DNA from: Amphiscolops sp. MND2022
Lineage: Eukaryota
Assembly: GCA_964187785.1 (NCBI GenBank)
Contig: OZ076409.1
Location: forward strand, 60,576,001 to 60,640,000
Direction of reading: 5' to 3'
Length of the DNA stretch: 64,000 bases
A program made the position numbers and the translations under genes. Shown piece by piece: positions 31,741-61,280 of the stretch (within the stretch, counting starts at the first letter, position 1; every line of letters starts with the position of its first letter). The notes beneath the pieces were generated by a model. That model was given only the letters and a program-made list of their open reading frames with translations. It was not told where the DNA came from and searched no databases.

Positions 31741-32270
31741 TTTTTAGTCGGCGCCTTTTCCCTTAAGGAAAAAAGCCCGACTCTTACAGTGAGTAGTTTT
31801 TTTTTCAGTTGACAATCTCACTCTGAGTGGTCCACTTTTCTTACAATTTTTGTTCATCTTTCATATTCGTTCATCTTCCATCTTCGACCCAGCCGGAGAG
31901 CGTGGGTTCGATTCTCGCACTAAACCATAAATTTTTTATTGCTTCCAAAAGTACAGGTGAGACCAAAGGGTCCCCCCTTTGGGTTTTTTTCGGCACTATG
32001 CGACTTTTTTCGAAAATTTTCGAAATTTATCAAGGGGTACCCCCTTGAATTTTTTTGAAGTTTTCGGTTTGTAGAAAACGTTGAATGAGCCTGAATGGCC
32101 TCTTTTTGAGTTTTTCGGCATTGTGCGACCTAAAAAATACTTTTTTTCGAAAAAAATCAAAAATTTTTTTTTTGAAAAAAAAATTTTCTTCCAAATTTTT
32201 CCAATAGTTGTTCCTTGAATATTTTTGAGCCTAAGATATGGCGCCGACTTGGGACGTTCCCGTCTTGTTT
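31741..32270 (+). repeat. Helentron-like interspersed repeat copy
   Basis: TTTTT-AGTCGGCGC (31746-54) ... GCGCCGACT (32241-49), hairpin GACG-TTCC-CGTC, then TTGTT. A 3'-truncated copy starts near 32985. Confidence 0.75.
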
Positions 32271-33411
32271 GACATTATCGGACCTTTTTAAATGAAGGGT
32301 TCCCTTCGATTTTTAGCTGTAACACAGCGTGCTGCGAGCATACAGGATCGCAAAGAAGTTTTGAAACAACGCAATTGTTGAGCGTTTTTAGTAGGCGTTT
32401 TCGAAGAAAAAGCACGACTTTTACAGTGGCTAGTTTTTTTTTCGTCCGTTCAACGCAATCGGTCCAGCTTTTGTACATTATGCGTTTTTACCATAAGTAC
32501 TTAGTACTTCATTTTGAATGCATTCAAAGCCTCTAACATGAAATAAAAAACCATTGCAAAGCAGAAAGGTGCCCTTTCCACTTTTTTAACACTATAAGAC
32601 TTCCCCCTTTTTTCGGCTTTGTGAGACGAGACGTTTTTCGAACGTTTTTCGATGTCTCCCAATCGTCCCCCTTGAATTTTGATAATTTGCAACAGAATGG
32701 TTGTTAAAAACCTCAAAGGGTCTCCCTTCCATCAAATATTCCCAATCTGAGGCTAGATCAAAAGTTCAAATGGTTTTGGGCCTTGGCTTGGAGCATACAA
32801 ATATCGTAGCACCTTCTGCAAACCATTGAACGCTTCTGTTCGAAGCCAAGTGCGACATGCCGTCGCGCCTATGTTTCTTTTATTCATCTTGTGTTAATTT
32901 TACTCGGTGGTTTTTACTTTCGAGTGTATTTTATCTTTTCCAAAAGTTGCATCTGTGAACAACCTTGTTCATTTTATGTATCTTTTTTAGTCGGCGCCTT
33001 TTCTTTTTTTTTCTCCAGACCACAGACCTCACACTGAAAAGATAACTTTTTACAGAAACTACTAGATTACTAGACCAGCCAAGTCCGACCAGCGGAAACG
33101 CATCCAAGTTAGTACAAAGGGTCCCCTTTCATGTTTTCTTTTCCTAACGTAACATACAAAACCGAACGAGACTGAAGGATCCCGCTTTCAATTTTTTCCG
33201 CCACTGCGAGAATTTTTGTCGGGAATTTTTTAACGTCTCCTAAGTGTCCCCTTGAATTTTTTGATATTGTGCAACAGAATGAATGTTAAAAAATACCAAA
33301 GGGTCCCCGTTTTACATTTTTTTGGCAAAATTCTCATTTTTTAAACAATTATTAGGTTTTCTCAATATACATCCACCGATAACTTTTTTTCAAATCTCCA
33401 AAATAGCCGGA

Positions 33412-33679
33412 TGTACTGATCTACATTAATAACCAATAGTATTTAGATGTTTATAGAATGTTCTAGAATGTACATTTATTTGTTATTGAATGATTGTAAA
33501 TCTCTACTCCTTCAGAGAGAGAAAACTAATAATCAGTATTCAGTTGACTTCCTTTTTGTTCTACTCCTAACACCTCGGAATAGTTGTAATAAAGTAAGCT
33601 AGCTAGCCTGTCTCTCAGCCGCTTTTAGTAGTTGCGTATAAGACCATAAAAACAATAACCAACCATTAAAAGCAGCACA
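33412..33679 (+). repeat. 5' LTR (268 bp)
   Basis: TGTACTGATC...AAGCAGCACA; no difference from 51593-51860 seen by eye; AATAAA at 33588-33593. Confidence 0.95.
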
Positions 33680-33682
33680 ATT

Positions 33683-33697
33683 TGGTGCGACTTGTAA
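33683..33697 (+). promoter_or_regulatory. Putative primer-binding site (primer tRNA not assigned)
   Basis: TGGTGCGACTTGT begins 3 nt after the LTR end. Confidence 0.7.
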
Positions 33698-33920
33698 AAT
33701 TTTTCTCTTGTCCTTTCTCCTGGATGATTTCTCTTCTCTCAACAATCATACAAATACCACTCTCCATATTTGAAATTCTCTGGAATTGCAGTAAAATCTT
33801 TCTAGAATTTCTTGAAAGTTTGGTCTGTGACTTTCTAAATTTCATTACCAAATACATCATCGTTCGAAACACAATTTCTCCACTACAACAATCAATTTTA
33901 ATATAACAAAATTTCTTCAA

Positions 33921-34252
33921 TACCGGTTTATCACGTTTTCTAACACGTTGACACGGTTCTTTTTCCTGTTCTTCTAGCCATACCGGTTTATCACGTTTTC
34001 TAATACGTTGAAACGGTTTCATTTCAGACTGATTTATCCATTGTGACACAGTTCTGTTTTTCTTCTTTTTCCAGACTGATTTATCCAAAGTGACACAGTT
34101 CTGTTCTCCATACTGATTTATCACAGCTAATCCGGAAGCTTGTTGAAACAGTTCCTTGATGTATGTCTGGTTTATCAAGGTTTTCTAACACCTTTGACAC
34201 AGCAACATTTGTCTGGTTTATCATGGTTTTCTAACACCTTTGACACAGCAAC
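33921..34252 (+). repeat. Degenerate tandem repeats in the retroelement 5' leader
   Basis: Paired units CCGGTTTATCACGTTTTCTAA.ACGTTGA, CTGATTTATCCA..GTGACACAGTTCTGTT and TGTCTGGTTTATCA.GGTTTTCTAACACCTTTGACACAGCAAC. Confidence 0.8.
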
Positions 34253-35495
34253 TTTCTTCAATCCTGCTATCTTGAACGTCAGGTGGACTCCTGGTGTAAT
34301 AGTTGACTGAGTGCATGTCCAACTCCGTTCACCTATAAGCACATACGTCTCAAGATCAACTTCGTGTTGGCAGAAAACCTGGATTTTCTACTTTTACGTT
34401 TCGGATCCCCTTTCTACAAAATTTCCTATAAAAAAATTTCAGAAATAGACTCTGAAAACAAAAAAAGGCAACCAAGACTAACTACCGAAAACAACCACGC
34501 ACTATTCCCTTTCTTTCCCTATTGTCGACAAACAATACAAATAAATTCACAAAACTTAAATAATACACATAACTCCAAAAAAATGTTTTCACCAATCAAC
34601 AAAAATAACAATAACAAATAAACTCAAACTTCCCTTAAGTACTTCTAATAATAATAATAATTTTAACATAATCCTACCAAACAATTATTTTAACAAAATA
34701 CAACATACAATTTTCACAACTCTTTTGCTTTAAAACTTAAAATAAGGCATGTAAATAAAACAAAGAAAGTAAAGTTAGTTTTCTACTTTCAGGCACCCAC
34801 AATTCCTATTCCCTTCCGTAAGACTTAGCCAATCAGATAGCCACACCAGCGTACTCTGATTCTAAGACTGACTAAAAACCTTAGTTAAGTGTAAACGTCT
34901 TTAAGGAGAATCGAGAGGACACCGAACTACGTTCGAATCTTCAAAATTCTCAAGAAGTAAAAGTAAAAGTAAAAGAAACAAAGATCAAATTCTGATCTTG
35001 ATCAGTATTGATCAGACTTTAGATGGTGGACGTTGATTGTTCAGAGTTCCACTCCTTTAGTCTTAAAACACACAACCCACTTAAAATTAAAACAATCTTA
35101 GTTTTTCTGGACGTGTCAGTAACCTTATGTTAGACACCTTAAAGAGATCCAGACTTAAAATAACATTTAGTTTCTGTTAGCAATCCTTTGAGGTTGAATA
35201 CAGATCCTATTGCAACCGCTTATTTCTTCTCTATCCCAAAATATTAACTTCTCAAATAACTTCAAATTACAATACAACTTTTATGAACCCAAACCAAGAA
35301 ATTTATCCTTTCAACTTTTACATTCCACCAATTAGCTCACTTCAAAACCCTACACCAAACGATTTTGAAAGATTAATTGAACGATATCAACGATATTTCT
35401 TCTATATCATAAATCAACAAAGAAATTACCCAAGAGCTCGAACTTAGAAAATCTTTATATAAAACATTCTAACGTTATAACCTTCACATTACAAC

Positions 35496-35609
35496 ATGTG
35501 GGAAAAGGTTACCACAGTAGTACTCATTACAACATACACGTTTTGTGTCTTATTTATAGTTTGTGTTCTTCTTGAAAAAATACTTACAGTGATAAGAGAT
35601 AAACTTTAA
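35496..35609 (+). CDS. Small putative single-pass membrane protein (37 aa) immediately upstream of gag
   Basis: MWEKVTTVVLITTYTFCVLFIVCVLLEKILTVIRDKL*; 22-residue uncharged stretch; stop codon ends 2 nt before the gag ATG. Confidence 0.45.
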   Translation: MWEKVTTVVLITTYTFCVLFIVCVLLEKILTVIRDKL

Positions 35610-35611
35610 AA

Positions 35612-38600
35612 ATGTCCTCAACGACAACCCCTCTACCTTTCCAAACTCCCACCATTAAAAATGCAAAAGTTGTAAAATTAGAACTAAACCCATTTCTACA
35701 AAGCATTCTTTCACATTATACACAACCACTCCCATTTGAAAATGAACCTCACACAATTGAAACAATCCCTCTTATTAGAGAACATTTGGACACATACCTT
35801 TTCTATATTAGATATAAAGTTTTAACAATCACCGAAGAATACCCAACTTTTCAAATATCCTTTCCTCAACAAAAATTTAACTCATCTCATATATACAGAA
35901 GAACAATAAACCCAATAAACCTTCAAGTTCCTATTAAACAAGTCTTTCATGCTTTTCTAAATAATGTAAAAGACCACAATTTAGCACACGAAATTCCAAA
36001 ATATAGTCCAAATGCACTCGACGATCTTCAAAGATACATAGACAATTTCGACGTAGAAACTATTGAAACATTGGTTAATCCTGAAGACAATCCTCATCAT
36101 TGGTTACAAACTGATATATTACAAATTCAAAATTTCATCTACCACTACTTCAAAGACCTAACATTAAATAACCAAACAATTCCTCAGATCAAAGTAATAT
36201 CTTTATTTCTTAGAAAATATTTCAGATTTAATTACCAATTATTATGGTCTCAACAAGATCAACCTGCTTTTACAGAATTCCCAGATCAATTTACATCAGA
36301 AGAATGTTTACCATTCATTATCAGCGAACAAAATGAACACCCTTATTTTCATAAACCACAATTAATTACAAAACAAACCTTAGATTACATAAGTTTCGAT
36401 CCTCTATTAATTACAGAAAATGATCTATTCCCAGATAATAAACCTTACCACTATCAACAAAATTCTCAAGATCAACAAAATTTACATTTTAACACTAACA
36501 ATTCTACTGAAGATGATAACACCGATCAAGAAAATACAACCCAACAACAAAATCAACCTGAAAACTATAACGATAATGAGTTTACTACCCAAGAATCTAC
36601 AATTTCAACACATAATCCATCACAAACAGGGACATCAACATCAGTACATACTTACTCCTTTAGAGTTCCAACTAGAGTTATAAATCAAGGACAAAATATA
36701 CATAGTCCTCAATCTCATTTAGATACATCTCCAAACCGTAATATAACTTTTAACCTTCCACATACAGATGACATAAACGATGAAACCCATGATACATTAC
36801 AATATGATACTATGACTACATCTAGTGCTCACAATACTTCTGTTAATGTTGCATCCCCAACAAGAACTACCTCTGATTCTACAAGATACATTACTCGACC
36901 TAGATATGATCCTCCATCAATTCCCTCCGCCTTTCGCTCAAACAGATCGACCACTTCTAGCAACAATTTTAATGATAATCCTCAAACTTCCAACCGATAT
37001 TACGATCCATTTAATTATAACTTTTATCCTCCATCAAACACAACTACCAATACGAATATAAGCCAAAACCACTCTCAAATTAATACAATTTCAACAACAC
37101 AAAATCCCTTCATACAATTATCAAATACCAATACGTCCCAGAATATACATTCTCAAAATCGAGGAACCTCGTGTACTTCCATTTCTTATTCTAATATTAC
37201 ACAGAATTCTCAAAGAAGACTTCATAATCCTCCACTCACACATATACCAACTGATCCTCTGTATCAAACGCATTCAAATCCAAATCTTAACCCTAATCCT
37301 AACCCATTACCATCAAATACAATCCAATATATACCTCCACCACTCACACAACAATTAGCTCCGCCACCCCAATATTTCCCAATGCCGCAAGATACCTTTA
37401 TAAACATGTCCGCTTCAATACCAGAACCTATGAAACCTTTTGATGGTTTGGACCATTCTTACACCCCTGAAGAATATCTACAACAAGTCGAAGCAAGATT
37501 AACCTTCGCCATAGGTGAAGAACCTCAAAATAATCCTATAAAATACAAATCTTGGCATAATAGACGCATGGCTTACATACAATGTTCATTAATAGGAACA
37601 GCTCTCGATTGGTACACTAACCTCCATATATCATATAAACAACAATGGAATTCCTTTGTACAACTATTTAAAAAACAATTCTCATCTCAAAAAACTGCTT
37701 ACTACGCTCAAGTAGAAGCTATGTCACTCATGAAAAAGGATAATGAAACAGTTCGCCACTTTGCCCATAGAGTACAACAATTAGTTAAAAAGGGATGGTG
37801 TAATGAAAATGCAGCTACCATAAATCTCAAAAATAACGAAATCTTTACAAAAGGGTTACCAAAGAAATTAAAAGATTTTGCCCATAAACGACAAGTTAAA
37901 CATGTATCAACATTACTTGAACCTTCAATACCATTTCATACACTTGTTAGACATGTCGATTCAGAAGATGTTGTTAATGAAAAAATCAGAACTAACGACT
38001 TAGCCTTAGAAATAAACAAAGTATCGCTTGAAGAAGATACTAACAAAAAAGAATTTGAATACGAAGATCAGATAATGGTTACTCAAACTGGAGACCCAAA
38101 TAACAAAAGCAAACCAGCGTATAGAAAATATTGTTCCTATTGTCATAAAAATAATCATAGTATTTCAAATTGTTATCAAAAACAACGTGATGACGAATAC
38201 CAGAAATACAATAACCAAAGATCACGAACTCCTCAACAATGCTTTGTACAATATTTCCGTAGTAAACCTAATAATCCTCAGGAAAATCGAAATGAAAATA
38301 CAAACTCTTATTCCTCAGATAATGATCGTAATAAATACAATCAAAACTACTATAATGATAGATACAAAAACAATGATAGATATCGTAGCAATAGTAGAGA
38401 ATATTCGCAAAACAACTATAGATCAAACTCTCGACAAAGATGTCATAATCGATCCCGAAGTCCGTATAGATCTCGATTTGATAATTATTATCAAAGAAGA
38501 ACTCCATCTAGATCTCCATATAGATCTCCATACAGAAATAACTCAAATTACAGATATAATTCTCGCTCAAGATACAGATCTCGTTCTCAATCACAAGGAA

Positions 38601-41600
38601 ACTCCTTTAAACGATATAATTACCCATATAGATCTCCATCAAGACCTAGAGATTTTAGATCAAGATCTAGAACACCCTCAAGAAACAGACAACAAAACAG
38701 AATAAATCAAGTAGACGTTAAAACACCAAAAGAAAATGATAGTACAAAATTTGAAATCCACACCTGTCAAATGACTGAAATAGCTAATACAATCACCCCT
38801 TATAGTTGGTTTTATCCACTATATATTCACGCCTCTGAAACAAATGACAACATATTACCTTCAAAATTAGAAATCTTATTCCTTTTAGATACTGGAGCTT
38901 CCATATCTGTTTTGAATTTACCAACATTTCATGTAATTTCCAAACAAAAAAACATCCATGTTCCAACTAACATCCAAAACAAAAGAGCCAAAACTCTTAC
39001 AGTTGCAAACCAAACTGAAGTACCAATAATACATTATATTTCGATGACTTGTTTCACTGAAGTAAATCACAAAACACGATCCTTCAATATCGATTGTGCC
39101 GTAGCAAATATCAAATACAACATTCCTGGAACACCCTTTTTCAAAAAGCACATCCAAAATATTGATTTTCAACAAAACATTATGACATACACAGAACAAC
39201 ATCCAAAGCTTTCAACAAAAACTACATTTTCTACATTTACAGAAAAAGATTATCCATATATTTCTTACATTTATACTATTAAATGTAAGGAACCAATTCA
39301 CTTTAAACCAAGGTCAGGAAAAACCATACATTTCCCAATTAAAAACTATTCAAATCTACATTTTGAACTCGAAGATAATACGAAGTTCTACCCAACAAAC
39401 CCATATACATATTTCTTACAAAAATTTAAAAATATCTTTCATTTCTTAGACATGATAGTCAATGAAAAAAGCAAAGACTCATGTGCAACTATAATTCAAA
39501 ACTTTACATCTTACCCAGCTACATTACCACAAGGAATTATTGGATATATAGAAATACCGATTACGCAAACAACTCCTCCTCACTACAGAGTTAACGATGT
39601 AAATTCACTCATTCACTCTGTAATACATGCATATCACCCTGATACGACAACCCCGATTAAACAAAATCCATATACAGATATGAACTTATGCACTAGGGTA
39701 ATACCACAATCCCTATTAGAAATAAACAAGATAGAACTTAACGACAAAACACTTCAACTTCCTACACCTTCTGTTACTGGAAACCTTCGACCCTCAGATA
39801 AAATTCGAAAAGATTTCCCTCCATTACCCTATTCTACAGAAAACCAACAATTCATGAAGAAATTCAATTTCGAATACTCAGATTTAACCGATACAGAATA
39901 TGTAAACCTCTGCAATATTCTAATTAACAACCAAAATTGTTACGCCAAACATAAAAACGACGTAGGAAAGATTTCCACTCCTTTTCGAATTAGAATAAAA
40001 GATAATTGTAAACTTCACACACAAAGACCTTCTAAAGTACCTATCCACTATAGAGATAGACTAAATAAACTTTTACTAGAACTCGAAAAATACAACATCA
40101 TAAAACAAATTGGTTCAACAACAGATGAAAAACATACTATTGGAACAACTTTTTTAAACCCTTTAATTATTATTCCAAAAGGAGACGCAATAAAAGTTGT
40201 TTTAGACGCAAGACATCTAAACTCAAACACTAACCAAGAACTTGAATCTTGGCCTATTGAACCTTTAGCTCTTCAATTAGCTAGAGCAAATAAAAAATAC
40301 AAATCAACTATTGATCTAATGTATGCATATGCTCATACACCATTAGATGAAGAAACAATTAAACTTACAGGATTTTCATCCGGTGACAAATTATACGCCT
40401 TTATCCGTGGATTTTACGGATTAAAAGGACTTCCAAACCTTTTCACAAAACAAATGTCAACTTTCTTTAGATCACTTATAGACAAACGTTCTGCGTTAGA
40501 TTATATAGATGATATTCTATTACTCGCAAATGAAAAACAAGAAATGTTTGAACTTATAAAAGAATTACATACAATAGCATCTCGAGAAAATCTCAAACTT
40601 GCACCTGAAAAATCGTTCTACATGCTACTCAAAGTAAAATTCCTTGGACATGAAATTGGTAACAACACAATTAAGCCAATTCCATCCAAAATTGAAGCTA
40701 TTAAAAGAATCCCATCACCAAAAGAAAAGAAAGATGTTATGCAATTTCTTGGCAGTGTTAACTTTTATTCAAAATTCATTGAAAAACTTCATATAAACCT
40801 TAAACCATTGTATACATTACTACATGATGATGTTAAATGTCAATGGACACCTGAATTAGAAAAACTATTTCAAAATGTTAAAAACGCAATGACAGCAGAC
40901 ACTGAATTAACAATACCCAACACCACGCATCCATTTTTTATAACAGTAGATGCTTCGTTAGTAGGTTTAGGCGCAGTCTTATTCCAAATGAACGAAGAAA
41001 ATAAGATGAAAGTAATCTCTTATAACTCCAGAATTCTCAATACACAAGAACAAAAACTTTCAACTTTAGACAGAACTTCTTGCAATAGTTTACGCATTAC
41101 AAATATATGAATTTTTGATCATTGGATCTCCTCATCCTATATATCTCTTCACAGATCACAAGCCTTTATTACATTGCTTCGCAAAGAAAGGAAATCTTAG
41201 TCCTAGATTCTATAGAGCACAAATGCAATTAACCAAATTCTCCAAATTAAAAATCATTCATACCCCTGGAAAAAATTTAACTGTAGCAGATATGCTTTCA
41301 AGAACCTTTACAAAAGAACAGCTACAAGTACACCAATTACGACACAAACAATTACCACCTCAAATAGATTTCTTTATCATGAAAGATAATCAACTCAAAC
41401 CAGTACATTATTTAGTAAAACATGAAGAAATAAAATATAATCAAAAAAATGATTGTCATCCTATCCTTGCTGATTACGGAGACGATCAATTCTCCATCCG
41501 TATAAATAACAAAGGAGAAGATATACATATAAAGCCTTCAGATTCCTTCTCTTTTCAATCTATTGTTCCATTCGAATCAAAATATAAAAGGCCTACAAAA

Positions 41601-43644
41601 AAACAAGCAAAATCTCTTTTACAACAATCGGCAATTCTTAATGATACTGACATTCTTAGTGATGAAGAGGAAATAACACCACCAAATAATATCCAACAAC
41701 AAAACTCGAACATAGTAAAAGAACATACCCTTGCTATACAATATCCTACCAAATCTGACTATTGTACACAACAAGTTCCATTTTTTGATCCGTCTTTTTT
41801 CAAATACAAAAAGTATTTTAATTACTTCTTCCTACCAGAAGATACACAAATTACTATTGAAACAATAAAAACTCAACAAAATCAAGATACTGTTTTACAA
41901 AAGGTTTACCAATGGATACTTAATAATGAAAGACCCTTACAAATAGACCCAACAATTGCAGCTAACTCTTTCCTATTAGTATATTACAAACTCTTCAACC
42001 GATTGTATATTAATCATGATACAAAAATTATTCACATAGATTATCCTAATCTTCACGATTCCAACCCGAATCAAAGAGACAAAATATGTTTACCATTTAA
42101 ACTTTTCCACACAGCTTTTAACAAACTCCATGCTCATGGACATTCAGGAATAAAAATATCCATCAAAGCTTTCAACCAATTTTACTTCATACCGTACCTA
42201 AATAAATGGATGTCAAAATTCATCCATGATTGCATTGAATGTAAACAAAATAAACATATTAACCAAAAATTACAAACTGCATCTATACAAACCTTCTCAG
42301 GAAATGCTTCATATTTTAATTACAGAATATCAATGGATACAAAAGGACCTATAAACCCACCATCAAATCAAAATTCATACATTCACGTTATAGTAGACGC
42401 TTTTAGTCACTTTGTAGTAACAGTACCCATAAAACAAAATAATGCTCAAAACGCTGTTAACTCATTACTACATCATTGGATAACAAAATTTGGACCTCCT
42501 GTATACCTAGTTACCGACCGTGGAACAGAATACATTAATTCAGAATTTGCAAATCTTTGTACTACAATGGGAATTAGACATTCACCAAGAACTCCTTATG
42601 CACCATGGACAAATGGTTTAGTTGAAAATCAAAACAGAAATCTTGGAACTCATCTTAGACTTTTCTTACACAACACTCCAGAAAATTGGTCAACTCAAGT
42701 CCATATGTATGCTTATGCACATAATTCACAACCACTTTCTGAATTAAACTTATCTCCATATGAAATAGTATTTCATACTATACCCAGAATTCCCATCAAC
42801 TTTGAACTCAATCTCCAAAGAGATACCTATAGAAATTGTACTTCTCAATATTGTCAAGAGCTACCACTTCATACACACTATGACATCAAATCTAAACCCT
42901 TTCTTTCATAAAATTTTATCTAAACCAATTCCACAATGGATCTTAGCTACTGAAACTGCCATGATACAGATATACCATACGGTATATGAAAACACAAAAA
43001 GAAAGATTAATTCCTATGCTTATTTTAACAAAACATATCACAATCCAAGACCCTTAGATATTGGTACATTTGTACTAAAAAGAAATTTTCTCCATGTTCA
43101 TTTTTCCGATAAATTAAAACCTCTCAGAATTGGCCCATTCAAAATTATTAACAAACTCTCCGATATAACATACGAAATTGTTAATCAAGATGGTTATACA
43201 TCGCACATACAAAGAAATCATTTAATTCCTTATTATCCAAAAGAACCAGTTATTTTCCCTTTCATACAACAATATAACCCTCATTTATTTAATGACTGTC
43301 ATTCAAATACAAATGATCAAATAATTAACTCGGATGAAGACAAATTTACAGACGAAGAACAATTTCCTTCCACAACATTTAATAAAGAAACGGATGTACC
43401 ATCCACGATTGACTTACAATCAGAACCATTTAACCAATATTCTTCATTTCCATATAAACAAAAAGAACAAATTCCTCAAAATACCTCCCTGGATAACCAA
43501 TCAGATATTCATGATTATGACAATTTTATTAACCCCCGAAGACACTCCTATAATAGATACAATTTCCGCCCACAACCAAGAAAAGACTACCGACTCTTCC
43601 TTGGTGAAAAGGATATAATTTCACTTTCTCAAAAATCCTGCTGA
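35612..43644 (+). CDS. gag-pol: Gag-Pol polyprotein (Gag, CCHC knuckle, RS-rich region, PR, RT, RNase H, IN), disrupted by two frameshifts
   Basis: Capsid-like PMKPFDG...EEYLQQVE; CSYCHKNNHSISNC; LLDTGAS; VVLDARHLN, IDLMYAY, FYGLKGLP, YIDD; VDAS...TDHKPL; HGHSG...CIEC; MDTKGP, TDRG, NGLVE; IGPFKI. Restoring 2 nt near 41073 gives LDRELLAIV; restoring 2 nt near 42885 joins the 42802-43644 frame. Confidence 0.93.
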
Positions 43645-43828
43645 AATACGGAATACAGAAAGAAATACACACAAAGAAAGTTTGAAAGAAAGAAAAAGTT
43701 TGAAGCTTAGAACGAAAATAAATGAAATTTATTTTACGAATGAGAATAAAAGAAAGAAATCCTAATTGATATAAAACTATAACTATTTTACAAGCTGAAA
43801 CTAACTATCGTAACACAACGATTTCAAA

Positions 43829-45271
43829 ATTGATAGACATAATCACTCACCATCATCAACTACAGATAACTCTTCTTCTAGTTCAACACATTCACTCCAA
43901 AGATTACCTGAATATACAGCATATTTAAACTCAGATACAGACATACTGGATTCCTCATCCTCAAATCCCAGTCCATCCGCTCCATATACTCCTGATAGAG
44001 TACCAACAACACCCACTAATACACCTATATCCCAAACTCAACCACAAATATTAACAACTCAATCACAACCTAGTTCACGAAATCTAACATTTTTAGAAAC
44101 AAATTCACCACTTTCTGACTCTAATGATGAAACACCTACAATACCAAATACACAAGATACTTCAGATATTTTGAATAGACCTCCTCTTCCACCGATTACT
44201 ACCACTCGTTCTATTCATATCCCTGATCCTAACTCAGTATTACAATACATAAATTCTTGTCCACACAAAGTACCAACTGCAACGAAAACAAAAAGAAAAA
44301 CTCCTTTACCAACATTACCACAAAATCTTGATTTACCATCATCAAGTAATATTCCAATAACATTTTTACCAGAACCTTCATTAAAATCACCAACGAAAAA
44401 ATCACAACAATACCCAACTCCTTCACCATTGGAACTAAGTTCCTTCACATTTTCTCAAATATATCCCAAGCTTGAATTACAACGTGTACATTCAACAACT
44501 ACCTCTTCATTAACAGACTTATATCATAAAGATAAAGACTCTGACTCAACTGCTAGTACTAGAGTACCAAGACATAATTATAACCTTCGATCTCAACAAC
44601 AAAAAAATTCTCAAGAATTACAATCCTTAACTAGCTCAAGTACAAATTCAAGACTACTTCGACAACACGCCCAACCCAGATTGGACACTTCTTCTCTTTC
44701 CTCATCTCAGCCCACTATACCATCTTCTCTATCACTACCATTTCAAATCACATCAGGATTTGAAACAGCCTCTCTTATTTCTGAAGAGCCAGCAACTATA
44801 TCAGATAGCGCAGCTAATTTTTCACGAGTTTACTCACCTAGTTCAATAGCCTCAAACTCCTCTATACAATTACCTGAATATTTTTTAGAAGACTTCTCAA
44901 GACCTCCATCGCCAAATCCTCACGAATATCCTATTCGTGTTAACTCAAAAATTGTTCGTACGCTTAACGAAGATCCTCGATACATGGTATTACCTGCAAG
45001 ATTTATAAACAATAGTTCACTCTCAACTCAAAGAAAACAAAGGGAACTACGAAGATTACAAGAACAACAACTCACATTAAAATTTGAAGTAGAAGTCACA
45101 TTCAACTCGTTAGGACCTCATCCATTCTCTCTTTCAACAAGAGTAGCACATAAAACAACCCCATCACCATTCATTGTTACCTCCATTTCCTACCTTCGTG
45201 ACGCCGATTTACCTGAGATTAGAACAGGACATATAAACTTTTTTAATCCCCTACTCAGGACTCAATTATAG
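43829..45271 (+). CDS. Accessory ORF2: Pro/Ser/Thr-rich, largely low-complexity protein (~480 aa)
   Basis: The frame of track ORF 44171-45271 is open back to 43814. ATT at 43829 after CAAA looks like a mutated or non-canonical start. Contains PSAP, YPKL and HNYNLRS. Confidence 0.7.
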   Translation: MDRHNHSPSSTTDNSSSSSTHSLQRLPEYTAYLNSDTDILDSSSSNPSPSAPYTPDRVPTTPTNTPISQTQPQILTTQSQPSSRNLTFLETNSPLSDSNDETPTIPNTQDTSDILNRPPLPPITTTRSIHIPDPNSVLQYINSCPHKVPTATKTKRKTPLPTLPQNLDLPSSSNIPITFLPEPSLKSPTKKSQQYPTPSPLELSSFTFSQIYPKLELQRVHSTTTSSLTDLYHKDKDSDSTASTRVPRHNYNLRSQQQKNSQELQSLTSSSTNSRLLRQHAQPRLDTSSLSSSQPTIPSSLSLPFQITSGFETASLISEEPATISDSAANFSRVYSPSSIASNSSIQLPEYFLEDFSRPPSPNPHEYPIRVNSKIVRTLNEDPRYMVLPARFINNSSLSTQRKQRELRRLQEQQLTLKFEVEVTFNSLGPHPFSLSTRVAHKTTPSPFIVTSISYLRDADLPEIRTGHINFFNPLLRTQL

Positions 45272-45286
45272 ATCAATATTTTAACC

Positions 45287-47866
45287 ATGAACGAAATCAC
45301 CTTTACCTTTCATTTAATATATATATAATACAAGTTGTTAAATACAGGTATATAATAAATATAGTTCACTCTTTAGTTCATCCTTCAACTGTTCCCAAAG
45401 TTGACATCATCAATTCCGAAAATCATATTTCAGACCAAGATCCTAACATTTTAAACTTAATGGTATCTCATTATGATTGTGCAAAACAAAACAACCTAAG
45501 ACAATTCAGTTTATTAAACGTAGAACCGTGTAAACAAGCACCCTCAGATATACAACACACAAAAACCCAAGCAACAATTTACGTTAGAGCAAAAGCCAAA
45601 AGAATAAAAGCCTTTAAATGTGAAGCATATATAAAGACTGAGAAAGTCTGATGTTCACAAACATTCACATCTAGTAGACGATATGATCGTTTACAATGGG
45701 GACAAAACACATTAGAACTTCCAAAAATATTGGACCCTATTGAATGCAAAAATATGATCAGACATTTAAACGCGACTGATAGCGAAGAATTAAACAACTA
45801 CAATATACAAAGCTCTTTCTCATTGTTCGATGATAGTAATTATCAAAACACAATTGAACGAATTCAGACACCATTTAGAGTAAAAAAGTTAAATACATGG
45901 CATATTGGAACCTTCGTATTTGACGAAAATTATCCTGATTGGATAGTTAATGTTACACAAAATACATACTCTAGATGTCGATCAGACCGCGAACATTTAA
46001 TCACCCGACAAAGTTGGAAACTTAGAATTGTTAACACCGCAATAGATTATGACGATAAAAACAATCAAGTAATACATGACGGACACATATTACCATGTTA
46101 TCATTCAGACGGATTTTGTAAACCAACGACCAAAACTCCATATACATTGACATGGTTTGATGAAAAATTTTGCCTCATATTTAAACTTCAAGAATTCATT
46201 GGTAGAATGACACGAATCAAAGATATATATTGGATAGAAACCGATACCTTTATTGAAACTTCAAACATCACACAAAAACTTCAAACCGAAGGAATACAAG
46301 GAACAAAATACCCTAATATAAAAACACCAAAATCAAAAGTAAGCAATCCAAGCCTTTCCCGATTTGAAATATACCCAATTGCACAAACTTTCTCTGGAAA
46401 ACCTGAACCATTATTTTCAACACAATATGATGACATCTTTGTTACATACTTAGATGGTTTTGATATGAACACAGGATTACCAAAACCACACTCAATAATT
46501 GACCAAACAATTAGTGGAAATATAAAATATGATGATTCAAACAAAAGGTATATAATCCCTGCATTGAATATATCAAACAATTTCGCCACTTTAGACTATG
46601 ATGCCCACATTATTACAAAAATTGATTTCACAATAAATCATGTATTTAAATCCATGACAGTACAAGAATTAAACACTCTACATACAATATGTGAACTAGA
46701 AAGAACTCAACTGTTAACAATACTAGCAATGTCAGTTAAAAATCCCCAATTAGCCGGTTTTCTTTTAACTGGAAATCGTAGTAACTTTCTCTACGTTGAA
46801 GGATGTACAGCATGGCTGTATGATTGCCCTCATTTTATATCACCACTATACAAGGCAGATAAATGCTTTGATAGAATTCCTATACACTACAGAGAAACGA
46901 TAATGTATGTTGACCCAATAGCAAGACAAACTTTTAACTACGCAACACCAATTGAATGTGGAAATAACCCACAAAATATAATAGAATTAGATCCAGATTC
47001 TAACGACGGAGATTTTTATGTGTTAACACCAGAACCACTCAAACGAGAAGCACCACAAATGTTTAAACCTACCCAAATTAAAACAACAATCACTCCTAAT
47101 ACATTTACCGCCCAAGATGCCGGTATATACTCAAATTGCAGAATTAGATCAATTCTGGAATAGAGTATTATTTGCTAAACATTCAGAGACAACTCTTCGA
47201 TTACTTGGAAAATCATTAAGCTATGATTTCATTTCAATGCATAACGAAAAACACTCATACTCCCAACATAATCCCTACAATCATTTAAGGATTGGAGTAC
47301 ATGACCACTTGTTAAATCTTTTACCACTTTTTAACCCTGACTGGTTCAGTCAAGCATTCATTAAATTCTTTGGATATCCACGTTATGTTTTAACCCAATG
47401 TGAAATTTATTTTTCAACATTCCTTTTCATTAGAGAAGTTTTAACATTTTTACTCAAATTCTACAGAACAATTAGCATAAAATATAATCTCCAAAGCAAT
47501 ATTTCCATTTTGAGTTCAATAGCCCATGGATTTTTTAATATAGTTACATCGGAAATGGTAACCGATTTAAATAATACAGGAAAACGAAAACGGATATATA
47601 CTAAACACAAAATTACAACAAGTGAAAATGATAATATCCTATTGCCGGAAAAAGAATTAAACAATAAACGAAGACACTCTGATACTGACTCCCCTTATTT
47701 ACCTCCTAAAAATTCCAGTAAGAATTCAACATTTCAATCACCGCAGAAGACACACCCAACTAATGTAAACGATATTAATTCTCAGGACTATGACCCAATT
47801 ATGTCAAATATAATAGCTGTACCGGAAAGTCCTGCTAAAGTCTTTATAAAATTCAATCCCTCCTAA
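45287..47866 (+). pseudogene. env: Env-like class III fusion glycoprotein (chuvirus G / herpes gB-like), disrupted
   Basis: Hydrophobic N-terminus from ATG 45287 with a frameshift in the (TA)n run near 45320. HYDC...FSLLNVEPC...FKC; TGA at 45649; ICELERTQL...LYDC...KCFDRIPI...YVDP...IEC. A +1 frameshift near 47136 restores GIYSNAELDQF. C-terminal hydrophobic segments and a polar tail follow. Confidence 0.85.
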
Positions 47867-48264
47867 CTGAAAAGCAATAACGTAAAAAACAAATTAACCT
47901 CAAGAAAAGTTCACAAAATTATCAACCAAATTCTTCTCAGTTTCAACTTTCATTCACATCCAAATTCTCACTCGGACCGGTCTCTCCTTTTCAACTCAAC
48001 TCAACTCAACTCTCAACCAGAAGACATCAACTGGATTTTCAGTCCATCTAAACGACCGAAATCACAGAAGTTTCTATTCCTGGAATAGATGCCACTGTGA
48101 TTGTTGATGTGTTCAACCCATCATTGACCCAGTATTCCCATATTGTAAGTACAATTTAAACTTTAATTTTAACAAACAATTTAATGGATAGAAAAGACAT
48201 AACAAAAATTACCCAAATGTTATAATTATTATTTTAGCTCTACAAAAACACGCAAGTTTAAATA

Positions 48265-49557
48265 ATGGAATCCTTGCCCGAAATTGATGTAGTTAATTCT
48301 AATCCCTCTGAATTGCTTGCAACCCCTTTAAATATAACTATTCAACAAAATGTTAACGAAGATAATAACTCCCCCTCCAACTCTCAAGATCCTATAGAAA
48401 ATATCCCTATTGAACAAGTAGATCATGTCAACACAAGATCTCAAAAAAGAAAGTACCCAGATATAACTGCAGATAAACCTTTTATGGAATCTGGCGCTTG
48501 CCCTCCTTTCATAAAACCAATTAAACAAGATGAAGATAGAGATTGTGAATTAGTTCCTATTCTCTCGTCAAAACAATTCACATTTCAATCTCAGTTAACT
48601 TCGTTATACATGATCCCAACGAAATACAAATTCATCATCAGAGAATTTAAAAATGATTATCATACATCAATTGCTTCAAAACTGATTACCCCATATGATT
48701 GGTGGTTGAACAATAAAGTGAAAATTTTCTCACTTCAATACAACTTCCTCAGACCATCTCCATATGATCTCCGAACAGAAGAAAATGATGCAAATTTTTT
48801 GCCATATCAAATCAAAAAGGCCCACCATATGACTTATCAAAAGTTCCTTCAATATAAAGAGCCCGATAATTATATATTCTTCAACTCAAAATATACATCG
48901 CCATCCACTTTCAACTCAGAATATTTAATAGATCATATCAAAACAAAAGGAAAACTTAGAAATTATGACCCACTGAAACAAAGTTTTCTCTTCCTTCCAA
49001 ATGATAACCCAAAAAGACCAATCATTGTTCCACAAGAATACCTCATTCTAAACGACGATTCGTTACTACAAGAAGATATACCTCAACATATATCTGATCC
49101 TCTTCCTCCACTTCAACAAATAGCCTCTCAACCATTGGGAGACTGTGAAAAGTCTTATTTTCACGCAATGATCAAAAAGGGAAATTCAAACAATGAATTA
49201 ATTTTCATTATTTCCCACTTGCTTTCACTTCTTACAAATGGAAATCACAAAGAATATAAAAAGGCAAAACAAGAATCGCCTAAGAAAACCAAAAATGATA
49301 TTCCTCAACCACAAAGCTTTCGCCCAACAGATGAATTACAGAAATATACAGAAATTCTGAATATCATAAAACCGTATCATCATCCAAACCGAGATATTCT
49401 TATAACAATCGCTGAAATCGTAAATACCCTTGAACAAGCTCGAAGCATAATACAAAATATCGTATTTGATACGACAAGAATTAGCCAATCAGCTTTGTGC
49501 ATTCGCACATCTTTAGATGAATTCAACTACACTATTGAAAAAATGCATCGATCTTAA
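48265..49557 (+). CDS. Accessory ORF4, 430 aa, unknown function
   Basis: Intact ATG-to-TAA ORF inside the element with the same A/C-rich codon usage as gag-pol; basic patch TRSQKRK; helical-looking C-terminus. Confidence 0.75.
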   Translation: MESLPEIDVVNSNPSELLATPLNITIQQNVNEDNNSPSNSQDPIENIPIEQVDHVNTRSQKRKYPDITADKPFMESGACPPFIKPIKQDEDRDCELVPILSSKQFTFQSQLTSLYMIPTKYKFIIREFKNDYHTSIASKLITPYDWWLNNKVKIFSLQYNFLRPSPYDLRTEENDANFLPYQIKKAHHMTYQKFLQYKEPDNYIFFNSKYTSPSTFNSEYLIDHIKTKGKLRNYDPLKQSFLFLPNDNPKRPIIVPQEYLILNDDSLLQEDIPQHISDPLPPLQQIASQPLGDCEKSYFHAMIKKGNSNNELIFIISHLLSLLTNGNHKEYKKAKQESPKKTKNDIPQPQSFRPTDELQKYTEILNIIKPYHHPNRDILITIAEIVNTLEQARSIIQNIVFDTTRISQSALCIRTSLDEFNYTIEKMHRS

Positions 49558-50078
49558 CTGGTAATTATGGGATAATAGCTTTAAAGTTATTAACACTTAT
49601 CACTTAATCTTTTAACAACCTGTCAAAAATAATTGAATCTACACGCATATGCCTGCTATGCATGAATTTAATACTTACTTGATGTTAAAATACATTTTTA
49701 AAATGAAATAACATAAAAATTTCAATCACGACATAAAAATTTTCAACGAAATTCTTCAATTGCTCCTCCTTTTAATGGACCGATTTCACCAAAAAAGTAC
49801 TTATATGAAAGATATTTAAATACCCTTCAAAAGATTTCCAAAATACAACAACTTAATACTTAAAATTAAAAAGTTATAACATCACAAAATTCAATAAAAA
49901 AATGTCAACTACGAAATTCTATTTTCAAAGGAACTTTATTGTAAACAAACTAATCTATTTTAGGAAAACATCGTCACAACTGCTTTTTCCGCATTTCTTA
50001 CTTCTCTCAGGTCACCCATTCAGGAAGAATTCCGAAGTATCCTCTACAGCTTTCAACGAAATTTTCTCATTCTTCAAT

Positions 50079-50555
50079 ATGACAACTATCCACTCTGCCG
50101 ACATTGACTGCCCGATAGCTCCTTTCCTTTCAATCTCTTCAGCTCGATTGCGATCCTTGATCCTGAAAAAGCATTTAACGACATTAAATGCGCAGCTTCG
50201 AACAGAAAAAAAGGCTGACCCACATCTCACAAGGATGATATTGCTTAATATGTTCCAAATATTCCAAATAACAAGAATAAATTTCGACCAATATCTCCAT
50301 ATTCATAAACATCCTGACACTTATTCAACTCAAAAGGATGCCACTACACAAACGGAACATACTACAATCAAACCCAAGCGTTTACTACGAACCCTATCCA
50401 ATAGAATGCGTTCCAAAATGGAAAAACAACGTCTAAGTTCATATTGGCCCTCAGATGACAATGATGACACTGACGAAGACCTTCAAAAAGATCCCCCAGA
50501 AGCACTTTTAGACGATAACTATCCACATAAAACATATACTTACGTTTCCTTCTAA
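50079..50555 (+). CDS. Accessory ORF5, ~158 aa from the second ATG (frame open from 49902), unknown function
   Basis: Strong splice-acceptor-like TTTCTTACTTCTCTCAG at 50010 precedes ATG 50079; contains DATTQTE, a basic patch and an acidic tail. Confidence 0.6.
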   Translation: MTTIHSADIDCPIAPFLSISSARLRSLILKKHLTTLNAQLRTEKKADPHLTRMILLNMFQIFQITRINFDQYLHIHKHPDTYSTQKDATTQTEHTTIKPKRLLRTLSNRMRSKMEKQRLSSYWPSDDNDDTDEDLQKDPPEALLDDNYPHKTYTYVSF

Positions 50556-51577
50556 CATCAACAGACGCCACCAACAGCACCCGTCAACTCTCATCTTCGA
50601 ATTCCACATCTTCTACGAGCAACAGATCAGCACCCATCTTCATTTCATCGCCGCCCAACAGTTGCCCACCTTCATTCATCTGCTGACCCTTCTTCTTCCA
50701 TCTTCCCATCGTCCATCATCACCCACATGCTCAGCCGAAGATGATCGATAATTAATAATAAAGAAAACTCAAAGAAAAAACACTGTGCATGATAACATTT
50801 CGAAAAGTTTCAAACTCATCTAATATTTAAAGAATTCAAACTTTTACCGAAATTATTCATTATGTAGTTACTATTTCAAATTTCATCCCCACCCATATTA
50901 TTGCCCAAAAATCTTTTATTCATATCCATACCGATATTTATTTGCTTTATTTTTAAAGAATAATTAGTAATAATTATTATTTTTCGGTGCTATCCTATCC
51001 AAAAAATTCACAAATATTATCAACAAATCTTTTCAAATTTCAACAAAACCAACTCAAAATCAGATCAAGCACATTGTTCAGATCAAATTTGAATAATGAC
51101 AGACACAAATTCTCAAAGTTTTCAACATTTGTTACATAACAAACCCGCCAAAGTTAATCACAACCTGAAATTTTTTCAAACGTATTCCACGTTCAAAAAT
51201 TTTTCTTTCTCAACAATATTATTTCCTTGACTCTTTGACCTTTAACTCGTATGATGTTTGCTCACGTTTGTTCAATGCGAAGTTCATTCAAAACTTCAAC
51301 AGAAGCATAAAATTGAGCATCTACCAGTTCAAAAAACAAGCCGACGAAAGCATAGTGAAAAAGAACACTTTGACGCTTTTTGAACTGTAGTCGCACCTAC
51401 GAGGTGTCAATCAAAATTTTGACAATTCGAGGTACACCAATGAGTCGAACTACACCACTTTTAACGAGACTTATGCCAATCATACATCAAATGAAAAATG
51501 TTAACTAGCTGAAACGCTAAGAACATTTAAACAAAAAATTTTTCTTCATTTCATGATGCTACTTTAGATTTTTATAT

Positions 51578-51592
51578 AAAAACCGGGATGGA
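51578..51592 (+). promoter_or_regulatory. Polypurine tract-like sequence
   Basis: AAAAACCGGGATGGA immediately before the 3' LTR TG. Confidence 0.6.
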
Positions 51593-51860
51593 TGTACTGA
51601 TCTACATTAATAACCAATAGTATTTAGATGTTTATAGAATGTTCTAGAATGTACATTTATTTGTTATTGAATGATTGTAAATCTCTACTCCTTCAGAGAG
51701 AGAAAACTAATAATCAGTATTCAGTTGACTTCCTTTTTGTTCTACTCCTAACACCTCGGAATAGTTGTAATAAAGTAAGCTAGCTAGCCTGTCTCTCAGC
51801 CGCTTTTAGTAGTTGCGTATAAGACCATAAAAACAATAACCAACCATTAAAAGCAGCACA
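51593..51860 (+). repeat. 3' LTR (268 bp)
   Basis: Matches 33412-33679. Confidence 0.95.
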
Positions 51861-52660
51861 CGAACAACCGGACAGGACTGATTGAAGCCGGATACCGGCC
51901 GGACCGGACAATATCCTCAATTGTAAGCGATGAAGGGCTGTTTTCAGAACTGGGTATTGAGGATAACGAAAAATTACGAAAAACGAAGCAGGCTTTTACC
52001 ACAGAGCGGTGAAAAACTATTTTCCCTGTGCCATAATATAATGAAACTTGATTCACAGTCACAATTTCAATTTTTCGATGCACATATACCTTTTCTAAGT
52101 TACATATTCCGATTGTTTAAGATTATATTTCAAGATAATATCGTAAAAAGTCCATTGTAAAAAGTCCGGCTGGATACCGGACAGGACATTTTGCTGAAAT
52201 TCGGTCGGATACCGAACTGGACTTGTTGTCCGATACATCTCTAGCTGGTAAAACCTCAGATTGTACGTCAAAATTTTAAAAAAGTTTAGTACACAATGTT
52301 TGCATGCAATTGGTTTTTTGTAAAAGCAAGGTGGCAGCATCCGTATTCAACGTGTATTTTCTCAGTTATATGAGGAAGATTATGTTAACGGTGTAATTCA
52401 TTTCACTCCACATTCATTTCACAACAAATCGTTTCGCCGCCCCTCATCCATTTTACCCCCACATTGAATTCACACCATATTGTATTTATACAATTACGTC
52501 TCGCCTTAATTAACCAATTAACAACAAGCATTTGATGCCTACTGTATAATTTGAGTCAGTTTTGATTTGATTGTCAGGTTCTGGCCATACGTGATTATTA
52601 AAACGAAATATGTAAATTTTTGCTGAAGATTCGCAGCATCCATAGTTAAAGATTTGATTA

Positions 52661-52839
52661 GGCAACGGTCGCTTTTTTAAAATGGGACGAATGGCCGCTT
52701 GTGACGAACTGCCGCTTGGGACGAAGTGCCGCTTGGGACGAAGTGCCGCTTGGGACGAAGTGCCGCTTGGGACGAATTGTCGCTTTTTGAAATTTGGGAC
52801 GAATTGTCGCTCGGGACGAGTCGTCGCTGAATGATTGCC
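52661..52839. repeat. Short element with a 17-bp minisatellite (TTGGGACGAAGTGCCGC)n
   Basis: About three perfect and several degenerate units, bounded by GGCAA...TTGCC. Confidence 0.8.
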
Positions 52840-60664: not shown

Positions 60665-61280
60665 TTTTTAGTCGGCGCTTTTCCATTAAGGAAAAAGCCT
60701 TACTATTACAGTGACTAATTTTTTAGTTGACGCTTTTCTAGTGACTATTACAGTGGCTTTTTTCGTCAGACCAAAGAGCTCACCCTGTATGTACCACTTT
60801 TTGTGCATTACGCACTTTTACCAATAACCATTCCACAGAAGGGTCCCCTTTCCTTTTTGTTCGGCACAAACGGCTTTGAGTTTTTCGAAAATTTTGCAAT
60901 GTCTCCAAAGGGTCCCCTTTCAAATTTTTGATATTTTGCAACAGAATGGACGTTAAAAACCCAAATGGTCCCCATTTTACATTTTTTTGCCACAATGCGA
61001 CATTTTCCACCAATTTTTTCAAAATGATTTGAATCTTCAATACTATCCGAAGTATACTGCGTTTCACTGAAGGTCGAGGTTTGAAAATATTGCGCTATAT
61101 TCGAATTCTTGACTTTTATTCCGCTATAAGCGACTATATTGCGCTTTACTGAGGAGGCGGAGGTTCGAAAACAAGCGCTCCCATTTGTCCCAGCACGCTA
61201 TATCCGAACTTTTGGCATATCCGTAGTCAATTGCGCATTACTGAGAAGAAAGCGGAGGTTCGAATTTATTGCGCTGTAAT
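60665..61280 (+). repeat. Further copy of the same interspersed repeat family (3' end unclear)
   Basis: TTTTTAGTCGGCGC start and GGGTCCCC cores. Confidence 0.6.

Follow-up and report, generated by a model that had tools for sequence, protein, structure and literature searches.

What is the 18.4-kb unit bounded by long terminal repeats (LTRs) that lies in a 64-kb stretch of the Amphiscolops sp. MND2022 genome (contig OZ076409.1, positions 60,576,001 to 60,640,000 of the forward strand; 64,000 nt, in the following called the window), and which of its open reading frames (ORFs) are genes? A preliminary description, made from the letters of the window, had taken it for a Ty3/gypsy element organized like a complex enveloped retrovirus, possibly of an undescribed lineage of infectious invertebrate endogenous retroviruses with accessory genes of its own. 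We find a decayed copy of a multicopy, env-bearing Ty3/gypsy element in which gag-pol and env are accompanied by a methionine-less ORF2 directly before env and by two orphan ORFs (ORF4 and ORF5) after it. As the best explanation, we propose that ORF2 and env are read from one dicistronic RNA and that ORF2 acts in budding; taken together with the unit and its gene set, this reading seems to us somewhat likelier to be right than wrong.

The element forms a single LTR-bounded unit at 33412-51860, with all genes on the plus strand. The 5' LTR (33412..33679, +) and the 3' LTR (51593..51860, +) are each 268 nt long, have TG...CA ends, and are 100% identical. They are flanked by a 4-bp target-site duplication (CGGA at 33408..33411 and CGAA at 51861..51864), which has one mismatch at this copy and is perfect in nine of ten sister copies. 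The primer-binding site (PBS; 33683..33692, +) can pair with the 3' end of a host tRNA-Met, assigned to the elongator type by inspection, through nine Watson-Crick pairs and one G-U pair. Since the host tRNA-Met fits the PBS, a self-encoded primer was rejected; Rfam gave no matches, and no tRNA was found within the 64-kb window. A polypurine-tract (PPT)-like sequence (51578..51592, +) adjoins the 3' LTR. The GC skew of the whole unit is strongly negative (-0.14 to -0.53, i.e., a G-poor strand), which is not so in the flanks. The preliminary description thus had the unit right, as it had the ~1.9-kb leader (33680-35611, +; 1932 nt) and the order of an ~8-kb Gag-Pol, ORF2 (~480 aa), env, ORF4 (430 aa), and ORF5 (~158 aa), all on the sense strand. 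Its layout stands, but this copy is defective: pol and env are each spread over three frames, and ORF2 is frameshifted near its 3' end. ORF4 and ORF5 are open.

Are the extra ORFs genes at all? They could be nested insertions, or frames that G-poor DNA leaves open by chance. The strand is indeed poor in G, and some long frames are mere by-products, for example, the +1 frame at 38076-38702 in gag, which was rejected as a gene on its ratio of the uncorrected proportions of nonsynonymous and synonymous differences (pN/pS 1.4-2.3). Searches of the 1.07-Gb genome, which gave at least 40 scored matches (of 1442 candidates) with the LTR and at least 102 scored matches with env, delivered the copies that decide the matter. 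The 5' and 3' stretches of the sister copies were read separately; in all ten, they run colinear with the window at 97-99% identity, save for internal deletions in two copies (~680 nt of ORF4 in one, ~550 nt of pol in another). Beyond the sisters, subfamilies A, C, D, and B1-B3, some older and some younger, differ from one another by 11-21% in DNA and show the layout wherever they are uninterrupted. Between subfamilies, the net ratio of nonsynonymous to synonymous divergence (dN/dS) is 0.12-0.23 for ORF2 (computable in four of seven comparisons), 0.06-0.15 for ORF4, and 0.07-0.21 for the 158-aa ORF5 (seven of seven for both), compared with 0.03-0.06 for integrase and 0.07-0.13 for env; the other sense frames of ORF2, env, ORF4, and ORF5 have values of 0.9-4.6. 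In the more distant families E, F, and G introduced below, uncorrected pN/pS is 0.11-0.41 for ORF2, env, ORF4, and ORF5 (E1 versus E2 and F versus G). These ratios show that ORF2, ORF4, and ORF5 are protein-coding and kept by purifying selection. A longer version of ORF5 was rejected because its 59-codon open stretch upstream is neutral (dN/dS 1.06, A versus C). The preliminary description had named two signs of spurious accessory genes, their absence from other copies as nested insertions and a dN/dS near 1; what was found is colinearity in 10/10 sisters and in four families and a dN/dS of 0.06-0.23 in one frame only. Nested insertions and chance frames are thereby refuted for ORF2, ORF4, and ORF5, and we grant this explanation practically no chance.

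Within the window's own subfamily, dN is 0.5-1.4 times dS, and each copy has accumulated 20-46 substitutions of its own in 7185 columns, their spectrum being broad. This pattern points to a recent burst followed by neutral decay. Hypermutation during replication was rejected as the source of the defects, since the spectrum of singletons is broad. The ten sisters were chosen by LTR identity, so that their LTR differences (0-2) and ages are biased toward low and young values.

Three further multicopy families of ~17.7-18.6 kb (E, F, and G) were reached in the same genome via a distant ORF4 homologue, protein P0129, and via an env search. They share 72-75% of the reverse transcriptase (RT), 53-64% of env, 32-46% of ORF2, and 31-43% of ORF4 residues with the window element. 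Pol, a Met-less ORF2, env, and an ORF4 homologue are present in 16 of 16 3' stretches (nine of E, four of F, and three of G), followed by a last ORF of 150-310 aa. Trees of RT, env, ORF2, and ORF4 contain the same three clades, which, being only three, show co-inheritance of the group and not branching order. By these trees and layouts, ORF2, env, and ORF4 are shown to have been inherited together across four families, and the claim of accessory genes of its own is borne out by sister copies and families alike. Most protein homologues in ENA are apparently copies from this kind of genome. Two appear to come from elsewhere: P0129, whose best match in the window's genome is 44-50% identical, and the env protein P0319, with at most 47% (in both cases among the top candidates scored). 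Because P0129 has no close match among the scored candidates, one further genome, at the least, probably harbors the lineage. Two points are to be set against this picture. With the exception of this one protein, all families come from a single genome, and ORF5 is not demonstrably one gene across the four families, as it has a weak likeness over 29 residues to the last ORF of F and G (E 0.02-0.6) and no likeness was found to that of E.

How is ORF2 translated? Its frame (43814-45271, +) has 485 codons from stop to stop, and with the proposed AUU start at 43829 the ORF (43829..45271, +) encodes a protein of ~480 aa, 39% of which are Ser, Thr, or Pro. The protein is Met-less in the family (the window copy has one private Met): among 120 ORF2-like proteins, decayed copies included, 63 of 37,449 residues are Met, compared with 1-3% in the other ORFs, the Met-poor Gag N terminus excepted. 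Conservation starts at A(-3)NN-ATT-GAT in 21 of the 22 copies of A-D that could be read (three of 25 were unreadable, and the one exception has GTT) and at A(-3)NN-CTG-GAT in 16/16 E, F, and G copies, in whose ORF2s CTG is otherwise rare (0-2 of 42-57 Leu codons). Moreover, ten ORF2s of A, C, D, and E contain 0-3 AUGs in any frame where 5.3-9.2 are expected, a scarcity reached in 0-3 of 300 codon-order shuffles and shown by none of ten control coding regions. The env AUG is located at most ~30 nt from the ORF2 stop in most copies inspected, and within the 3' end of ORF2 in F and G. Readthrough or frameshifting from pol was rejected because the spacer between pol and ORF2 (57 to ~330 nt) varies in length, phase, and stops, of which it holds several.

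Because ORF2 is Met-less and depleted in AUG, begins at a conserved AUU or CUG in strong context, and adjoins the env AUG, it is in our view quite probable that ORF2 is initiated without AUG and env reached by leaky scanning, on an RNA dicistronic for the two. In this mechanism, ORF2 and env would be read from one subgenomic RNA, on which some ribosomes would start at the weak near-cognate codon (AUU in A-D and CUG in E-G) and the remaining ones would scan 1.2-1.45 kb of nearly AUG-free sequence to the env AUG. The model is rice tungro bacilliform virus, where an AUU start of the upstream ORF and ~900 nt without AUG allow ribosomes to reach the next ORF (PMC5902531; here and in the following, statements about cited papers extend to their accessible parts). 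The likeness is one of mechanism only, as that virus (Caulimoviridae) is a plant pararetrovirus without envelope, whose cassette is situated on the pregenomic RNA upstream of the polyprotein (PMC5902531). The subgenomic RNA would be supplied by a splice upstream of the near-cognate codon or by an internal promoter as in the Tor3b/4b elements (PMC4402516).

Several observations speak against this account. In F and G, 3-4 AUGs (one of them in the env frame) face 6.3-8.6 expected, and 24-46 of 500 shuffles are as low. The depletion in one E copy is not significant under a synonymous shuffle (104/300), and A and C retain one or two out-of-frame AUGs that open ORFs of 15-16 codons. Furthermore, the start motif of A-D includes a conserved TAG that could serve as a splice acceptor. 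ORF2 might accordingly be the second exon of a spliced mRNA that takes its start codon from a leader ORF or gag, with env on a spliced mRNA of its own, as in complex retroviruses. The ORF2 boundary of A-D has a conserved GATAG, the pol-ORF2 spacer of family E has a pyrimidine tract and a CAG (four spacers inspected), and the Env mRNA of Tor3a is spliced (PMC4402516). Yet E, F, and G lack an AG at the boundary and still retain there, in strong context, a codon as rare as CTG; splicing would leave unexplained why out-of-frame AUGs were lost across the whole ORF; and donor-like sites number just two in the A leader, while an E2 leader has none. Leaky scanning would also be compatible with a splice that lies upstream of the near-cognate codon. 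A pattern search for spliced proviruses at the family-E junction, covering one site and one base, gave no matches. All in all, we hold the splicing of a start codon onto ORF2 to be unlikely.

What would a protein made together with Env do? The window ORF2 carries PSAP at residue 49 and IYPKL at residue 211. The motif [LI]YPxL is found in 10/10 ORF2s from the four families (in 2-3% of shuffles of each) and PSAP in six of ten (A, C, D, F, and G), and both are absent from Gag in A, E, F, and G as far as residue 900. In an alignment at 35% identity, the YPxL motifs of the C and E ORF2s coincide. P(T/S)AP, YPXnL, and PPxY are the late-domain types that recruit TSG101, ALIX, and NEDD4 ligases, respectively, and the Gag of murine leukemia virus has PSAP, LYPAL, and PPPY together (PMC8402826, PMC8952333). 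Matrix proteins of rhabdo- and filoviruses and the retroviral Gag products p6/p9/p12 bear the same three motif types (PMC8402826, PMC8952333), whereas in the window lineage the motifs are split between a stand-alone ORF2 and the Env tail. We give a little less than an even chance to the proposal that ORF2 is a budding adaptor or matrix-like protein made with Env. [quoted passage not shown]

A different role is a serious contender. ORF2 could be translated in the manner proposed and be a disordered Ser/Thr-rich regulator (a phosphoprotein-like scaffold, an RNA-export factor, or a factor against PIWI-interacting RNAs), with late motifs that arose by chance in a Pro-rich protein. Its composition (39% Ser/Thr/Pro) suits such a role, as do basic conserved islands, including RHxYNLR and RQHAQ. 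Four points tell against a budding adaptor, the first two also in favor of a regulator: PSAP is lacking in the ORF2s of family E; YPxL within the F/G-like set is not conserved above its surroundings (rank 76 of 245 windows); other short islands are equally conserved without explanation; and the N-terminal domain of Gag (~280 aa, 33-43% identical across families) could do the job of a matrix. Neither sequence nor fold homology of ORF2 to matrix proteins was detected in fold searches of low power. The conserved C-terminal domain was modeled from a single sequence as a helix and five strands with low confidence (predicted local distance difference test, pLDDT, of 44), and the best hit of this model in a low-power fold search was a beta-sandwich resembling adaptin/COPI appendages (Z 4.4, root mean square deviation 2.8, 69 aligned residues). 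With the same weak model, a BFVD fold search gave no match at E <= 0.001, and DUF5696, suggested by ESM Atlas for the domain (0.91, low recognition), was treated as noise. On the other hand, a regulator would not account for the retention of [LI]YPxL in four families whose N-terminal halves are barely alignable; co-translation with env suits a structural partner, and Gag is without these motifs. We put the regulator somewhat short of an even chance.

The gene for the matrix protein (M) lies just before that for the glycoprotein (G) in most mononegaviruses. Going beyond a budding adaptor, ORF2 and env might represent a matrix-glycoprotein module of negative-strand RNA virus type, captured or rebuilt by a gypsy element and fitted with a ratio switch of non-AUG initiation and leaky scanning, a speculation to which we attach rather little probability. 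If it were true, the lineage would be an infectious metavirus that buds via a stand-alone matrix protein and not via Gag, with eight or more genes, including two orphan regulators.

Does Env support an extracellular stage? The env gene (45288..47866, +) encodes 856-859 aa in the sisters and is broken here by a premature stop and frameshifts. It matches PF24664 (Monjiviricetes_fusion; 88.5 bits for a sister env at a cut-off of 27), by which Pfam match alone it is assigned to the class III or glycoprotein B (gB)-like type of fusion glycoproteins; a PDB sequence search gave no matches. The protein has conserved cysteines, a C-terminal membrane span, and no furin site. The cytoplasmic tail of C, E, F, G, and ten of 11 A sisters has PPxY, and that of the window copy does not. 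Alternatively, the element might spread only inside cells and form no extracellular particle, with env and the extra genes kept for a different use (e.g., fusing cells or blocking receptors), which we regard as doubtful. The mode of transmission of elements outside Drosophila is unknown and the gB of herpesviruses needs partner glycoproteins (PMC13524379). However, the net pairwise dN/dS of env is 0.07-0.13 in every subfamily pair (seven of seven comparisons), and its cysteines, membrane span, and tail PPxY are conserved in elements that multiplied until recently.

To which group does the element belong? Gag-Pol (35612..43644, +; ~8.0 kb) is a single ORF of ~2,680 aa with two frameshifts in this copy; one open frame of more than 2,500 codons is present in two of ten sister 5' stretches. 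It consists of an ~600-aa N-terminal extension, capsid, a CX2CX4HX4C knuckle, an Arg/Ser-rich stretch, protease (LLDTGA), RT (YIDD), RNase H, an ~290-aa bridge, integrase (HHCC, DDE, and GPF), and a low-complexity tail. Pfam recognizes Retrotrans_gag, RVT_1, RT_RNaseH, Integrase_H2C2, rve, and, weakly, SH3_Tf2-1. No Pfam family was found over cut-off for the bridge (41241-42101) or for the ~280 aa at the Gag N terminus (35612-36450), which are conserved across A, E, F, and G at 33-43% identity and not present in two more distant families, H and I. The TG...CA LTRs, 4-bp duplication, PBS, PPT, order of protease, RT, RNase H, and integrase, knuckle, and GPF agree with Metaviridae, for which duplications of 4-6 bp and a GPY/F motif are typical. 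In a PDB search, the RT is closest to Ty3 (E 6e-32) and 4ol8 (6e-33; same RT/RNase H type), followed by the enzymatic polyprotein 8r0s (3e-22) and retroviral Pol (2e-17 to 6e-12); this placement reflects search scores and not a tree with reference elements. The term retrovirus of the preliminary description is therefore to be replaced by metavirus. Retroviridae (as a complex retrovirus) were rejected, as the RT is not retroviral and Env is not a class I protein of surface and transmembrane subunits with a furin site.

BEL/Pao elements typically have the pol domains Peptidase_A17 and DUF1758/1759. An assignment to this group (Anakin-like, with a chuvirus glycoprotein) was discarded, since no BEL/Pao-type pol domains were among the Pfam matches at E <= 0.1. 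Nor does the element share the CG...CG ends, 3-bp duplication, absence of env, and CX2CX8-10HX4C knuckle of Troyka. It is no errantivirus in the Drosophila sense, which implies infectious particles and an F-type env from spliced mRNA, as its env is not F-type; in the operational sense of an env-bearing Ty3/gypsy element it is one, with an env-like fusogen ORF inside the LTRs.

How much of this is new? Ty3/gypsy elements that bear a gB-like env form a described class, which is widespread in animals (PMC13524379), and giant ones with accessory ORFs are known as Burro (PMC6431247). Of the undescribed lineage suggested earlier, the novelty of the class thus falls and that of the gene set stands, as no prior description was found. 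The layout is not described in the literature searched, which did not extend to Repbase/Dfam, subscription journals, bioRxiv supplements, or the sequence files of the eLife paper discussed next. The "ancient" errantiviruses with env of herpes simplex virus gB type (Chary and Hayashi, eLife 2026; PMC13524379) share Ty3/gypsy pol, the order gag-pol-env, a class III-type env without conserved furin site, multicopy occurrence, and an animal host. The host of the window lineage has Wnt genes and is hence an animal; the preliminary description's "invertebrate" is likely right, and its "infectious" a conjecture. Marks of the "ancient" group further include an RNase H plus "mini" domain in the bridge and the position in the RT tree, and those of a gB-type Env a five-domain class III fold with fusion loops and defined cysteine bridges. 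They are described by a three-ORF model, and neither "accessory" nor "splic" occurs in the main text (PMC13524379). For most non-insect genomes, that survey prefiltered for a pol-env distance of at most 1000 nt and 10 kb in all (PMC13524379), which is exceeded by the pol-env gap of the window lineage (1.3-1.7 kb, holding ORF2). The longest LTR-to-LTR span in 67 of the 1512 rows of supplement 1 is 13.3 kb, with longer ones possibly hidden by the extracted windows, and four short peptides and two PBS strings of the present elements are absent from the supplements, whose long cells are incomplete (PMC13524379).

The Burro elements of planarians are likewise very large, occur in thousands of copies, and have accessory ORFs and an env related to mononegavirus fusion proteins (PMC6431247). 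They differ in a length of >30 kb, an env in frame inside a polyprotein of 4,900-5,100 aa, and host domains (MATH, BIR, and BCL2) (PMC6431247), whereas the env of the window lineage is separate, with a Met-less ORF before and two orphan ORFs after it. Other non-insect env-bearing gypsy-like elements are the Tor elements of Oikopleura (PMC4402516) and the LTR elements of bdelloids with a variable ORF3 (PMC5408684). They express env by an internal promoter or splicing and have captured extra ORFs, one in each element, and the accessible parts of both papers contain no conserved multi-gene cassette (PMC4402516, PMC5408684). What sets the window lineage apart most are the conserved Met-less ORF before env with its likely non-AUG start, the late-domain motifs, the two orphan ORFs, and the leader microproteins.

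The assembly, budding, and cell entry of env-bearing gypsy elements outside Drosophila are an open question (PMC13524379), to which the lineage offers a testable answer, namely, a separate late-domain protein from the same RNA as Env. Accessory genes are kept across families whose Env is only ~55% identical, and the divide between retrotransposon and complex virus is bridged to a greater extent than a three-ORF model would suggest. AUG-based annotation overlooks a Met-less gene of 450 aa that lies between pol and env, and so do surveys limited by the pol-env gap. Since both miss ORF2, relatives may be hidden in other animal genomes, and P0129 suggests at least one.

ORF4 (48265..49557, +) encodes a soluble protein of 430 aa and ORF5 (50079..50555, +) a soluble protein of 158 aa with an acidic tail; neither belongs to a known family. 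ORF4 has homologues in families E, F, and G and in P0129; its structure model has a pLDDT of 31, and ESM Atlas gave no usable match. Pfam had no family over cut-off for ORF2, ORF4, ORF5 (A/C, E, F, and G), or the leader peptides. By analogy with the accessory proteins of complex retroviruses, ORF4 and ORF5 may tentatively be seen as soluble regulators (in RNA export or counter-defense), with a leader microprotein acting at membranes.

The leader contains several small ORFs, of which the preliminary description was right in part. A 37-aa single-pass membrane microprotein (35496..35609, +) ends 2 nt before the gag AUG. Its pN/pS of 0.04-0.36 in frame, against at least 1.0 in the other frames, shows it to be protein-coding and under purifying selection. 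Directly upstream of gag, two or three hydrophobic ORFs of small size are also present in families E, F, and G, including look-alikes of 37-48 aa (likeness judged by eye). A hydrophobic 60-aa ORF (33724..33906, +) is probably coding in subfamilies A-D, with pN/pS of 0.20-0.65 in frame versus 0.68-2.06 in the other two; it was not seen in families E-G. The 54-aa ORF (35283..35447, +) is open in A-D, with similar peptides of 57-69 aa in C, D, and B, and its pN/pS of 0.53-1.08 leaves selection equivocal. The frame at 34307-34621 was rejected as a gene on pN/pS. [quoted passage not shown] Those proteins have 63-107 aa, an N-myristoylation motif, an ectodomain of ~30 aa, and a polybasic patch, and occur in env-less elements (PMC11952523), whereas the leader peptides have 37-48 aa, no Gly2, and almost no ectodomain and accompany an env. 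A role of the 37-aa peptide as such a fusogen was rejected; it begins with MW and has its membrane span near the N terminus.

A 34-nt leader motif (34280..34313, +) is nearly invariant across subfamilies that are 11-21% apart and is likely an RNA cis signal, for example, for packaging. It includes a short CAGG/CCTG hairpin, and 46-nt and 30/60-nt repeats are situated upstream of it at 33920-34255. At the other end, the ~1-kb 3' untranslated region (UTR; 50556..51577, +) had been called structured, which holds in a modest form (folding z = -2.3; 0 of 20 shuffles as stable) with no match in Rfam. At 51389-51397 it contains a complement to the PBS of 8-9 nt in five of six A-D copies tested (9 nt in the window); a shifted 8-nt match is present in F and G and none in E. 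This complement may reflect long-range pairing.

Some further observations concern the other elements of the genome. A family-E copy is inserted in the leader sequence of an A-like element (L068:1701-1749), and contig C9 contains head-to-tail arrays, in which env of family G matches three times at a spacing of 18,204 nt and ORF4 of family E twice, ~18.6 kb apart. In the distant families H and I, which also bear env, the extra ORFs are different ones; neither ORF2 nor ORF4 was detected. Family H (L084:5668-7239) is ~12 kb long, has the same tRNA-Met PBS as the other families, and combines gag-pol-env with a 519-aa orphan ORF whose C-terminal half is coiled-coil-like. Family I (L085:706-6430) is 18 kb or more in length, its LTRs are 1269 nt or longer, and its gag and pol are separate. 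Two small ORFs precede env and two others follow it, one of 169 aa and one of 250 aa; the latter contains a TRAF/MATH domain (Pfam E 8e-22), which looks like a captured host signaling domain, as in Burro.

Elsewhere in the window, two exon-like frames at 7347-9561 (+) encode an S-adenosylmethionine-dependent methyltransferase. Pfam and PDB matches are to generic methyltransferases, and by their motifs the frames presumably resemble sterol C-24 methyltransferases, which, to our knowledge, few animals have. Two fragments of LTR elements were recognized by eye on the minus strand, one with a gag knuckle and a protease-like piece (169-1166) and one with an integrase-like piece (15198-15563). Repeats include a 38-nt satellite with higher-order repeats (56384-57887), a 17-nt tandem array (52666-52828), a 143-nt duplication (13417-13703), and an 80-nt near-perfect palindrome (10345-10424). 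Finally, a dispersed repeat family occurs in both orientations on either side of the element (24685-25284, 31794-33352, and 55287-61642).

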